This document shows positions 1,779 through 28,696 of a DNA stretch of 43,472 nt, in pieces; positions within the stretch are counted from its first letter, which is position 1, and every line of letters begins with the position of its first letter. The DNA lies in the IMG/VR virus record IMGVR_UViG_2737471820_000002. The stretch is one strand, 5' to 3'. The notes beneath the pieces are model-generated. The model saw only the letters and a list, made by a program, of their open reading frames with translations, made no database searches and was not told the origin of the DNA. The position numbers and the translations under genes are program-made. This DNA is from a virus. Lineage: Duplodnaviria; Heunggongvirae; Uroviricota; Caudoviricetes.

Positions 1779-2648
<870 letters not shown>

Positions 2649-3121: not shown

Positions 3122-4213
3122 ATGAATAAAAGAAAAACGCTTTTCAATATACAAGCACTAAGGTTTATTGCTGCAGCTATGGTGGTTTTGGCACATGCCG
3201 AACTTGGACAATATGGCATTGGGAATATCGAAATCCTTGCATCTCTGGGAGGATTTGGCGTTATTATATTTTTCATAATTAGTGGGTTTATTATACCTTA
3301 CGTAGCATATGGTGGCTCTCAATCAGAAGGAGAATTCAAAATATCTGCAGGGAACTTTTTTATGCGAAGAGTAATAAGAATAATCCCGGTATATGCTTTA
3401 ATTACCGCCCTTTGCGTTCTATCAGCCTTCATAGTAAAACATTATATATCTTCCCCAACTCCACCTATTGCTTATTGGTGGCCCGAAACAAAAATCAGTC
3501 TTCAATGGTATCTTGAGAGTATTACATTCACTCACTGGCATCGCGATGCAATTCTAAGTATAGGTTGGACATTACAACTTGAATTTTTGTTTTATACTTC
3601 TTTTGCATTTTTTATTGCTATCAAATTATCAAGGTTAGAGTATATAGAGATCTTATTTTTAACTATATCCATAGTAGCTAATATTTTAACTTATCAAAAT
3701 AACAGCATCATATTCGAAATTCTTCCGTTCATGAAAACACTGGCAAGACCAGAAATGGTCGTATTTGCTATGGGTATGTTTATGTATCGATTATACTTAC
3801 TGGGCGCTATGTTAAAAAAAACAATTGCGCTTACAATATTAACTTTGTTTATTCCCACATTCTTATTATGTGAATACTTTAATATTACAACAAACATGGG
3901 GGGGGAATGGCATCGTCCTTTGATATGGGGGTTTTTCGCTTTTTATGGTGTCTGGGCAGCGTTGAGCCTTGAAGGTAAAATAAAACCGGCTAAACTTATT
4001 ATTTTCCTCGGTGATGCTTCATATAGTATATATTTGACGCATGGTTTGATTACAGCTTGGGTATCATATATGTTTGTGTCTTTCGGACTTATTGATTATT
4101 CCAATGTATTTCTATATATTGGAATATACTTTATAATAAGTTGTGCGCTTGGCAGCGTCATTCATATGTACATAGAAAAACCCATCGCAGAATTTTTAAA
4201 ACGTTTTGTTTGA
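3122..4213 (+). CDS. Acyltransferase family 3 membrane protein (OafA/Oac-like, candidate O-antigen acetylase)
   Basis: 363 aa polytopic hydrophobic protein, N-terminal FNIQALRFIAAAMVVLAHA typical of acyltransferase_3; AT-rich; sits where the alternate tail-fibre genes of a Mu-type invertible segment would be. Confidence 0.65.
   Translation: MNKRKTLFNIQALRFIAAAMVVLAHAELGQYGIGNIEILASLGGFGVIIFFIISGFIIPYVAYGGSQSEGEFKISAGNFFMRRVIRIIPVYALITALCVLSAFIVKHYISSPTPPIAYWWPETKISLQWYLESITFTHWHRDAILSIGWTLQLEFLFYTSFAFFIAIKLSRLEYIEILFLTISIVANILTYQNNSIIFEILPFMKTLARPEMVVFAMGMFMYRLYLLGAMLKKTIALTILTLFIPTFLLCEYFNITTNMGGEWHRPLIWGFFAFYGVWAALSLEGKIKPAKLIIFLGDASYSIYLTHGLITAWVSYMFVSFGLIDYSNVFLYIGIYFIISCALGSVIHMYIEKPIAEFLKRFV
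3898..3905 (+). repeat. G8 homopolymeric tract inside the acyltransferase ORF
   Basis: atgggggggggaatgg encodes M-G-G-E-W in frame; counted directly from the sequence. Confidence 0.9.
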
Positions 4214-4265: not shown

Positions 4266-4292
4266 TGTGCTTTGAGTTAAACACTCAAAGCA
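4266..4292. terminator. Putative hairpin between the acyltransferase and tail-fibre-assembly genes
   Basis: gtgctttgag-ttaaaca-ctcaaagcac, 10-bp stem, followed by an A/T-rich tract; may act bidirectionally. Confidence 0.3.
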
Positions 4293-4441
4293 CAAAATAA
4301 AAAGCGCTGCCATTGTCTATTTTGCCCCTTCTCACGCTCGTTTTTTATTTTATAATAATACACCTCCAGTTACACTGTTGTAATTAAAAGCATGAATCAT
4401 CAATTAGTTCATCCCTTAATCTAACTCTTCCCCAAACGTTC

Positions 4442-5029
4442 CTATTCTGGTTCGGTGGGCCAGTTGATATTTGGCGCAAATGAAGTATCTATAGCCTGAA
4501 TGGCTTTTATGTACTGCACCCACGCAATCAGACTTTCCTTATCCCCATCACTGATGATGTCCAGTCGCAATTCTGTCTGCCAGAGACTTATTTTATCCTG
4601 CGCTTCAGCCAGTAACGCAGCCTTCTTCTGTTCAGCGGCTTCAACATCGGCAACGTGCTGTGCGTCAGTATCTGTTACCCACTTTTTGCCGTCCCACTTT
4701 TGATATGGTCCTGATGGCGCAACAGTTGTGTACCCCTTCCTGACTGGGCCGATATAATCTATAGTGGAAGATGAGGTATCATCGGTTGAATATACCGTTT
4801 CACCACGATGCTCTTCATCCTGTCGCCATCCGGTGCCCGTGAACATAAAAACCTTTCCATCAACCATTTCACCTGGATCAACATCTGTTGAATTACCCGG
4901 CATGCTGACGCCAGCGTTAATATATTCATCTGACCAGCCAGCATATTCCATGGTCACTGCATCGTAATAAAAACAACGAATATCACCGGCCTGCGTTGCC
5001 AGACCATTTTCATCAAAGACAGGTTTCAT
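4442..5029 (-). CDS. Tail fibre assembly protein (Tfa / Mu U-like)
   Basis: 195 aa immediately downstream of the tail fibre gene with a stop/start junction; typical Tfa position and composition. Confidence 0.65.
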   Translation of the reverse strand: MKPVFDENGLATQAGDIRCFYYDAVTMEYAGWSDEYINAGVSMPGNSTDVDPGEMVDGKVFMFTGTGWRQDEEHRGETVYSTDDTSSSTIDYIGPVRKGYTTVAPSGPYQKWDGKKWVTDTDAQHVADVEAAEQKKAALLAEAQDKISLWQTELRLDIISDGDKESLIAWVQYIKAIQAIDTSFAPNINWPTEPE

Positions 5030-6111
5030 TACTTTGCCCTCACCAGGAAATTGAATGCGATGTTGCGCGGTCGGTTCTCGTTTGCAATTGATACCGATGG
5101 GTCTTTTCCAGCGCTGAAGAGAATACTTTGAGCAACAGTGCTTCCGCCTGGCTGGAGGTTCGTTAAGTTTTGTGCCCCCCCAGAATAAAGCGCACCAGAA
5201 TTTGTAGTATTCCCAAAATATTGAACAAAACCGACTTCACCAGTGATATTTCGGATGGCATCCACCTGAGTACTCAGCAATGCCCTTCCTGAATCGACCC
5301 CACGACCATCATCCCAGATACGCGGGAATTCGCCTCGAGCTTCGGGAAGTGTAAGTCCAGGGAACACCTGTGCAAGTTTGGGGTATACCGCAGCAGAAAA
5401 TGACGCGCCGTTAAATTTTAAAAACACCATGTCAGACCATTCGCTTATGACCGTATTCGGCATTGCTGCGGAGGGCCAGAAGAATGGGACACCGATAGCT
5501 GGCGCACCAGACCCCATCCCCACATCTGCTGGCGTTGGCTTATATTTTTCAGAAAAGAGCTTATACTTCCAAATCGTAGTGTTGCCGGTTACAGCACGAA
5601 TGATTGGTGTTGCTCCAGCAGAATTTGCTAGCGGAAGATAAATCTGCACTCGTTGTTTTGATTCGGAATCATACAACAACGTTAGCACCATTCCGTAATC
5701 AATCCCAAAATCCGGGTCTGTATTACCGCCGTATGCATAAAAACCAGAACTTGTTGCGCTCGAAAGCAAGTTAATGTTAGAACCAGCGATATTTTTACCG
5801 ATACCCAGGTCCGTTAAATCAAGGTTTTCGAGAGCTGTTTTCACTGTGCCATCCGATTTGATATCACCAAACGGATTCTTGCGGCTTAACAGCAGAGCAC
5901 GAAGCGCGGTAAGCAACTGGTCGTTTCGCCCCTTCTCCAGGCTGGCACCGGATGCCTCCACCACGCTGCAGAGTTCTTCCTGCAACATATCAAAGTAATC
6001 ATCATCCAGATCGGTGGCAGGTGTGCCAGTCTGGGGGTTACCACGGGTAAAACCGTTCTTACCCGCGCCGAACTTATCCTTCTGCGCGGTTTTCGTGTCT
6101 ATACGATGCAT
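5029..6111 (-). CDS. Tail fibre protein (Mu S-like)
   Basis: 360 aa, Gly/Ser/Thr-rich, placed after the baseplate genes. Confidence 0.65.
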
Positions 6112-27380: not shown

Positions 27381-27389
27381 CCCCCCCCC
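27381..27389. repeat. C9 homopolymeric tract in the porin upstream region
   Basis: tatag-ccccccccc-ataaat, counted directly; about 225 bp upstream of the porin ATG. Confidence 0.9.
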
Positions 27390-27613: not shown

Positions 27614-28696
27614 ATGAAAAAATTAACAGTGGCAATTTCTGCTGTAGCTGCATCAGTACTGATGGCGATGTCTGCTCAGGCAGCTGAAATTTATAATAAA
27701 GACAGTAACAAGCTGGATCTGTACGGGAAAGTTAATGCTAAGCACTACTTCTCCTCTAATGATGCAGATGATGGTGATACTACTTATGCCCGTCTTGGCT
27801 TCAAAGGTGAAACCCAAATCAACGATCAACTGACTGGTTTCGGTCAGTGGGAATATGAATTCAAAGGCAACCGCGCTGAATCTCAAGGTTCCTCCAAAGA
27901 CAAAACCCGTCTTGCATTTGCAGGCCTGAAATTCGGTGACTACGGCTCAATCGATTACGGCCGTAACTACGGTGTAGCATACGACATCGGTGCGTGGACT
28001 GACGTTCTGCCAGAATTCGGTGGCGATACCTGGACCCAAACAGATGTATTCATGACTGGTCGCACCACAGGTGTTGCAACTTATCGTAACAACGACTTCT
28101 TTGGTCTGGTTGATGGCCTGAACTTTGCAGCTCAGTATCAGGGCAAAAATGACCGAAATGAAGTAACTGAAGCTAATGGCGATGGTTTCGGTTTCTCAAC
28201 TACTTATGAGTATGAAGGATTCGGCGTGGGTGCAACCTATGCTAAATCTGATCGCACTAATAATCAGGTTATCTACGGTAACAACGGTCTGAATGCTTCT
28301 GGTCAAAATGCTGAAGTATGGGCAGCTGGTCTGAAATATGATGCGAACAACATCTATCTGGCCACCACCTATTCTGAAACCCAGAACATGACTGTTTTTG
28401 GTAATAACCATATTGCCAACAAAGCACAAAACTTCGAAGCTGTTGCACAATATCAGTTCGACTTCGGCCTGCGTCCATCCGTTGCTTACCTGCACTCTAA
28501 AGGAAAAGACTTGGGTGTTTGGGGTGATCAGGACCTGGTTGAATATGTTGATGTAGGTGCAACCTATTACTTCAACAAAAATATGTCCACTTTTGTTGAC
28601 TACAAAATCAACCTGATTGATAAGAGCGATTTCACGAAAGCATCTGGCGTTGCTACCGATGATATCGTTGCTGTAGGTATGGTTTACCAGTTCTAA
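27614..28696 (+). CDS. Outer membrane porin (OmpC/NmpC/Lc family)
   Basis: Signal peptide [30 protein letters not shown]...LDLYGK start and C-terminal ...VGMVYQF beta-barrel signature; long AT-rich leader. Confidence 0.85.

Follow-up and report, generated by a model that had tools for sequence, protein, structure and literature searches.

The window analysed here is the whole 43,472-nt stretch of IMG/VR record IMGVR_UViG_2737471820_000002, a tailed-phage (Caudoviricetes) sequence that carries at 3122–4213 (+) a gene for a membrane acyltransferase of the AT3 family, and this gene contains an uninterrupted run of eight G residues (G8). We judge with moderate confidence that the run is a real slippage hotspot, which would give rise to sporadic and potentially reversible null alleles, and that it is not an evolved phase-variation switch; the data are best read as a mutational hotspot or as a contingency locus that is still incipient and weak. 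Specifically, the youth of the tract, the approximately 97% of sequenced copies that are in the full-length (ON) state, the similar behaviour of a run of eight A residues (A8) in the same gene and the low rate expected in wild-type cells lead us to favour a hotspot over an evolved switch.

Direct reading of the letters places an unbroken GGGGGGGG at 3898–3905, with T at 3897 and A at 3906 on either side. An earlier first-pass annotation of this DNA had reported such a run inside an acyltransferase open reading frame (ORF), read as atg-ggg-ggg-gaa and encoding MGGE, and both statements prove exact. In the ORF 3122–4213 (+), ATG at 3896–3898 encodes M259, GGG codons 260 and 261 follow, and GAA at 3905–3907 encodes E262. 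The same annotation held that a change of one nucleotide in either direction truncates the protein, which is borne out as well: G7 yields 266 and G9 yields 283 amino acids, both ending before the conserved C-terminal helices. The features that bear on the tract are the following.

3122–4213 (+): gene for an AT3-only membrane acyltransferase of 363 amino acids, a prophage moron and probable lysogenic-conversion O-acetyltransferase, assigned from Pfam, phrog and motif matches.
3814–3821 (+): A8 run, TTA AAA AAA ACA (L-K-K-T), the internal control in the acyltransferase ORF.
3898–3905 (+): G8 homopolymer, made up of the 3′ base of codon 259 (ATG), codons 260–261 (GGG GGG) and the first base of codon 262 (GAA).
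3921–3923 (+): TGA stop reached after a −1 (G7) shift; 266-amino-acid product ending ...MGGNGIVL, the exact product being found as P0003 and P0005.
3970–3972 (+): TGA stop reached after a +1 (G9) or −2 (G6) shift; products of 283 and 282 amino acids, the exact products being found as P0004, P0006, P0136 and P0137.

According to the mechanism that we propose, gain or loss of one G, or more rarely loss of two, would shift the frame at codon 262 and give a null product of 266 or 282/283 amino acids, and a second slip could restore the frame. All frameshift products end approximately 100 residues early, without the last three to four hydrophobic segments, the SxxxY motif of transmembrane helix (TMH) 9 and 20 family-invariant residues (R265 to K353). 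The SxxxY motif (S300–Y304) lies downstream of the tract and is therefore lost from every one of them. Because these segments, the motif and the invariant residues are all missing, the G6, G7 and G9 products should be null alleles.

We surveyed tract length by exact look-up of the predicted frameshift proteins among approximately 15 billion sequences, and the variants are thus known from proteins alone. G8 was found in 448 contigs, distributed over the alleles T241 (251), S241 (123), I241 (40), F201 (23), M52 (7) and L198 (4). G7 was found in eight contigs, six of them on the T241 allele (P0003) and two on the S241 allele (P0005), G9 in five (four as P0004 and one as P0006) and G6 in two (one each as P0136 and P0137). 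Lengths other than G8 therefore account for 15 of 463 contigs (~3%), on two allelic backgrounds and with at least six distinct variant products, which can arise solely through tract-length change. The variant proteins come from several sources, namely NCBI, ENA, Logan and RefSeq WP_001434144.1, with up to six contigs each, and the isolates with G7 or G9 include the sources of EHW95390.1, HBB8662674.1, EMN6810292.1 and XIX57913.1. The look-up returned no G10 product and no in-frame G5 or G11 product. Additionally, a gapped-pattern scan for any tract length recovered four copies from IMG/VR, all of them G8, and gave no match in the metagenomes of the Joint Genome Institute. With 561 blocks of the assembly collection indexed for the main allele, the true OFF fraction may lie below 3%. 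The comparison of tract length across genomes, which the first-pass annotation had put forward as a check, thus gives a divided answer: G6, G7 and G9 exist, but ~97% of the copies are ON at one modal length. Slippage in vivo, as we infer it, would produce sporadic OFF variants and not the balanced, rapidly exchanging ON/OFF mixtures of classical contingency loci.

The history of the tract was read from its homologues. Gly-Gly is kept in the protein down to 57% identity, but the codons used by relatives at or below 93% identity break up the G run in every case, as follows.

93% relative (Citrobacter meridianamericanus): ATG GGA GGT GAA.
86% relatives: ATG GGG GGT GAG or ATG GGA GGT GAG.
65% relative: ATG GGG GGA GCA.
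57–62% relatives: GGC GGT, GGT GGA or GGA GGA.

A scan of genome contigs gave a single relative, C. meridianamericanus, with GGA GGT. It follows from the interrupted codons that G8 is limited to a shallow clade at ≥99.6% identity and originated through two synonymous changes; judged from these alignments, the tract is evolutionarily young. The path at the conserved Gly-Gly would have led from GGA GGT to GGG GGT and then to GGG GGG, the last step being a T-to-G substitution after a G6 run, where misalignment hotspots are known. Substitutions beside runs, notably of a T following a G tract, are described as such hotspots (10.1101/346874; PMC10710837). Since the tract is absent from relatives that keep Gly-Gly, nothing indicates that it is maintained for mutability. 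The A8 run (Lys-Lys), on the other hand, persists in the relatives of 93% and 65% identity simply through preference for the codon AAA, and conservation of a homopolymer therefore need not imply selection for mutability.

The chance of meeting such a run was estimated at the level of the window and of the gene. In the 43-kb window, G8 or C8 occurs three times against 1.13 expected, and three or more were reached in 15 of 100 shuffles; the whole-window frequency of these runs is not above chance. Within an ORF of 34% GC, the first-order Markov expectation for a run of this kind is 0.02–0.03. When synonymous codons were permuted within the gene, a G/C run of eight or longer appeared in 290 of 5000 trials (5.8%), G8 being readily reached because the Met-Gly-Gly-Glu context requires just two GGG codons. 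The run is thus unusual yet within chance.

A yardstick for the slippage rate is available from E. coli itself. In mutation accumulation with mismatch repair (MMR)-defective E. coli, the four 8-bp G:C runs of leuP/Q/V/T gathered 95 indels in approximately 250,000 generations (PMC8510543), which corresponds to ~24 indels per run and ~1e-4 indels per run per generation without MMR. Loss of MMR raises base substitutions ~120-fold, and the ratio of substitutions to indels is 10:1 in the wild type and 5:1 in MMR-defective cells (10.1101/346874). From these ratios, MMR would suppress indels ~240-fold, giving ~4e-7 per generation in the wild type. The switch rate is therefore probably ~1e-7 to 1e-6 per generation in wild-type cells and ~1e-4 in MMR-deficient mutators. 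At ~4e-7, slippage at the tract would already be a dominant way of generating null alleles, and by an order-of-magnitude estimate could yield a few percent of OFF copies over centuries without selection. Contingency loci usually switch at ~1e-5 per cell per generation or higher, and the rate estimated here would lie one to three orders of magnitude below classical phase variation.

Several points weigh against the view that the run is a real slippage hotspot. The DNA copies examined are all G8 (20 of 20, comprising six RefSeq genomes, four IMG/VR contigs and ten more contigs), and the protein look-up found no G7 or G9 product on the four minor alleles, which together account for 74 contigs. 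The A8 control varies too, with an A7 product (239 amino acids, P0135) in four contigs and A9 in none. Both G6 cases come from short Logan contigs, and some of the G6, G7 and G9 calls may be homopolymer sequencing errors. Additionally, the wild-type rate is an extrapolation from published runs and was not measured at the acyltransferase locus, and the substrate and phenotype of the enzyme are predictions that no phage-record or NCBIfam match supports.

Alternatively, the tract could be an inert accident of codon usage that is stable in vivo, with G6, G7, G9 and A7 being sequencing or assembly errors carried into protein databases. We regard this as unlikely. The variants are confined to the two 8-nt homopolymers, as platform errors would be, and the look-up contained no variants of the other runs in the acyltransferase gene, that is, G5 (+1 and −1) and T6 (+1); variability at these two runs of eight fits slippage in vivo, and it also fits homopolymer sequencing error. 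That all inspected DNA copies are G8, that the −2 variants stem from short Logan contigs, that a G7 record whose longest contig measures 5.28 Mb may derive from long reads only and that a chance origin of the tract is plausible are likewise in keeping with error. However, the same variant proteins recur in NCBI, ENA, Logan and RefSeq WP_001434144.1, on up to six contigs. Variants of G8 are about four times as frequent as those of A8, a run of equal length (15 against 4 contigs), in line with the readier slippage of G:C than of A:T runs in vivo. The G8 run is also intact in an error-laden IMG/VR copy (L024) that contains three scattered single-base indels outside homopolymers, which suggests a low-quality assembly or a decaying duplicate. 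Finally, G:C runs of 8 bp have been shown to be hotspots of indel formation in living E. coli cells (PMC8510543). The genome from which the error-laden copy comes, IMG/VR genome 2526164662, holds two acyltransferase copies on different viral contigs (L023/L024).

Selection might also have maintained G8 as a genuine contingency locus that reversibly turns acetylation of surface polysaccharide ON and OFF and lets lysogens hedge phage resistance or immune evasion against the cost of modification; we consider this distinctly improbable. It would accommodate the −1, +1 and −2 variants on two allelic backgrounds and the two synonymous changes toward G despite the 34% GC of the gene. The gene class, together with a receptor-binding protein and defence cargo as neighbours, fits a role in phage interaction, and precedents exist in oafA of H. 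influenzae, an AT3 gene switched by a simple sequence repeat (SSR) (PMC9558356), and in the prophage gene neuO of E. coli, switched by slipped-strand mispairing (SSM) (PMC9659370). Against it stand the ~97% of copies that are ON at one modal length with neither G10 nor in-frame variants found, the lack of the tract in all relatives at or below 93% identity, the ~6% chance of G8 given the protein and its codon usage, the similar behaviour of the A8 run, which carries −1 variants of its own and thus makes the variability generic to long homopolymers, and an expected wild-type rate of ~4e-7 per generation, far under typical phase-variation rates. Additionally, SSRs are generally avoided in E. coli coding regions (PMC3315296). 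These are the grounds on which the slipped-strand phase-variation switch suggested by the first-pass annotation gives way to a hotspot, while the frame-switching placement of the tract and its length polymorphism stand. Programmed recoding, in which transcriptional or ribosomal slippage at the G run would yield two isoforms from one gene, is so improbable that we reject it: homopolymers can promote slippage of RNA polymerase or the ribosome and the +1 and −1 frames stay open for 5–22 codons, but the conserved full-length protein is already encoded in the zero frame, the shifted frames stop quickly without encoding conserved sequence, the run is wholly absent from relatives, and the bacterial slippage sites so far described are A/T runs of nine or more.

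The assignment of the gene to the AT3 family is well founded. The 363-amino-acid protein matches Pfam Acyl_transf_3 (PF01757) with 90.9 bits (gathering cut-off 31, E=1e-25), residues 9–347 covering model positions 3–324 of 326, and phrog_3333, ‘O-acetyltransferase’, with E=5e-82; RefSeq labels the gene ‘acyltransferase family protein’. AT3 signatures are defined as R-X10-H in TMH1, RXXR at TMH3 and SXXXY in TMH9 (PMC9833829). All of them are present here as R14-X10-H25, R83-V-I-R86 and S300-Y-S-I-Y304, and all are invariant across 12 aligned homologues. The protein is AT3-only, without an SGNH domain, and a crude Kyte-Doolittle scan displays hydrophobic segments throughout, with the tract falling within a hydrophilic loop (residues ~254–266). 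The ORF has a GC content of 34% against 50% for the window. Searches of NCBIfam (no match and no equivalog), PADLOC and the PDB (no solved relative) returned nothing for the acyltransferase, as did megablast and tblastn (E<=1e-8) against a phage collection of 50,697 records. Upstream of the gene, we found neither a gtr-like Dam/OxyR regulatory region nor a strong promoter. A frameshifted helix-turn-helix pseudogene, which may be the remnant of a phage regulator, lies directly upstream at ~2710–2934 (−) and is annotated in all six RefSeq carriers.

The acyltransferase is present at ≥99.6% identity in 6 of 5,426 complete E. coli genomes. In all six, it sits between junction-side cargo (the intS/argW side) and the tail-fibre-assembly and tail-fibre pair of a myovirus-type prophage. 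The corresponding features of the window are as follows.

4266–4294 (strand not assigned): hairpin with a 12-bp stem, terminator-like, between the convergent acyltransferase and tail-fibre-assembly genes.
4442–5029 (−): tail fibre assembly gene (phrog_105, E=2e-74), the same neighbour in 10 of 10 genomic contexts.
5029–6111 (−): tail fibre (receptor-binding) gene, part of the co-travelling module (phrog_1858, phrog_3100).

In ten contexts of the identical protein, the module of acyltransferase, tail fibre assembly gene (tfa) and fibre gene is found with either of two baseplate backbones, and its insertion sites in the chromosome number at least five, argW/intS and the bioA region among them; the acyltransferase is invariably convergent with tail-fibre or tailspike genes. 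The arrangement extends to more distant relatives. Homologues of 57–60% identity are convergent with a P22-like tailspike, beside the argW integrase in E. coli (int-AT3-tailspike) and in a prophage-like context in Proteus (int-AT3-tailspike-like), and the 65% homologue in E. coli sits between a lysis cassette and a tailspike (lysis-AT3-tailspike). Serotype-conversion genes of temperate phages occupy just such a position beside a receptor-binding gene, and on the strength of this consistent pairing acetylation of O-antigen or surface polysaccharide is proposed. Judged by synteny, the most likely role of the gene is lysogenic conversion by acetylation of O-antigen or of some other surface polysaccharide to which the adjacent tail fibre or tailspike binds. 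The earlier description of the locus as a surface-modification gene accordingly holds at the level of an AT3 acyltransferase family of surface-polysaccharide type, while O-antigen as the target is suggested by synteny.

Other observations concern the neighbouring genes. At the loci of the 57–60% homologues (L016–L019 and L040–L042; E. coli argW prophages and Proteus mirabilis), the tailspike has 860 amino acids and includes a GDSL lipase/esterase domain, and an acetyl-adding moron is thus paired there with a possibly deacetylating receptor-binding protein. The tail-fibre gene at 5029–6111 is intact in the window (360 amino acids) and is split or pseudogenised in RefSeq in strains C7, C3 and others. 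A run of seven C at 5175–5181 was considered as the cause of the truncation in strains C7 and C3 and was ruled out, the differences from the window being base substitutions and not indels. Defence-type cargo adjoins the acyltransferase, comprising a PD-T4-3 GIY-YIG protein (PADLOC E=2.6e-140) and a 424-amino-acid RelA/SpoT-domain protein, at 1824–2648 (+) and 1–1275 (−). The latter (Pfam E=1e-13, with a weak PADLOC PDC-S33 match) is possibly a toxSAS/CapRel-like system. In other hosts, a SIR2_2 protein or an AraC regulator occupies this cargo position.

In function, neuO of prophage CUS-3 comes nearest to the present gene among known systems; it acts on the E. coli K1 capsule and is likewise a prophage-borne O-acetyltransferase moron with a slippage-prone coding repeat. 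neuO modifies a phage receptor, and the same is proposed for the present gene. NeuO is, however, of the hexapeptide-repeat type. The enzyme is soluble, its crystal structure has been solved (PMC3046976) and its target is polysialic acid, whereas the present protein belongs to the AT3 membrane acyltransferases, a family with about ten TMHs. The neuO repeat is a heptanucleotide at the 5′ end with well-documented high-frequency switching, in contrast to the mid-gene mononucleotide run described here. CUS-3 inserts at argW and in the pgl-bioA region (PMC9659370), and both sites also host carriers of the present gene. The lipooligosaccharide O-acetylase gene oafA of H. influenzae shares the AT3 family and the switching of expression by an in-gene SSR (PMC9558356). 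It differs in having tetranucleotide repeats, a chromosomal location in a contingency-rich organism and a demonstrated switching phenotype. The G8 tract, by comparison, belongs to an enterobacterium with functional MMR, and homologues of the gene do not share it.

Sf6 Oac and other AT3-only O-antigen acetylases of temperate phages resemble the present gene in size (~330–360 amino acids), in being morons near an integrase and a tailspike or tail fibre, and in lysogenic conversion (PMC9558356). The present gene shows no detectable tblastn similarity to any record of the phage collection at E<=1e-8, and no homopolymer switch is mentioned for Oac in the text consulted. The Salmonella OafB/GtrC family is comparable as a case of prophage-associated, phase-variable O-antigen acetylation that modulates phage interaction, but its members are AT3-SGNH fusions that are switched epigenetically, through a DNA methylation-dependent mechanism upstream of the gene (PMC9558356). 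Upstream of the present acyltransferase, we found no GATC cluster comparable to that of OafB/GtrC. The leuP/Q/V/T runs represent the same feature in the same species and are measured indel hotspots (PMC8510543), but they lie in tRNA genes, have no switching role and serve as a rate yardstick only.

The window contains another homopolymer of note, a run of nine C (C9) at 27381–27389, in AT-rich intergenic sequence approximately 225 bp upstream of a prophage-borne OmpC-family porin gene (27614–28696, +). The porin gene is flanked by a DNA methyltransferase/holin and the Q-antiterminator region of a lambdoid prophage. In E. coli loci of 99.5–99.7% identity, the counterparts of C9 are C8 (E89), C7 (H7) and C6 (14EC001), with compensating A residues. 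The C9 run varies more in length than G8 does, possibly with an effect on the spacing of the porin promoter.

As it stands, the G8 locus is an ordinary mutational hotspot and not a new mechanism. If the slips are real, carriers of the cassette would repeatedly lose, and may regain, acetylation of a surface polysaccharide by one predictable mutation, which would affect serotyping, phage susceptibility and the outcome of phage therapy, and would explain the ‘frameshifted acyltransferase’ annotations in surveillance genomes. The cassette is widespread; its main protein allele alone accounts for 561 indexed blocks of the assembly collection, in addition to several minor alleles. It is improbable, in our estimate, that the locus is a contingency locus of the mononucleotide-run type, borne by a mobile cassette of phage genes (acetyltransferase, tail-fibre assembly and tail fibre), that reversibly switches receptor acetylation. 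If it were, lysogen populations would always hold cells susceptible or resistant to phages that use the acetylated receptor, the switch rate would be ~200-fold higher in natural MMR-deficient mutators, and the gene would follow neuO as the second prophage acetyltransferase of E. coli with SSM switching and as the first such enzyme of AT3 type. The locus also illustrates how two synonymous changes at a conserved Gly-Gly can create a coding homopolymer, and it provides a natural setting in which to test the switching capacity of G8 in a mismatch-repair-proficient enterobacterium.

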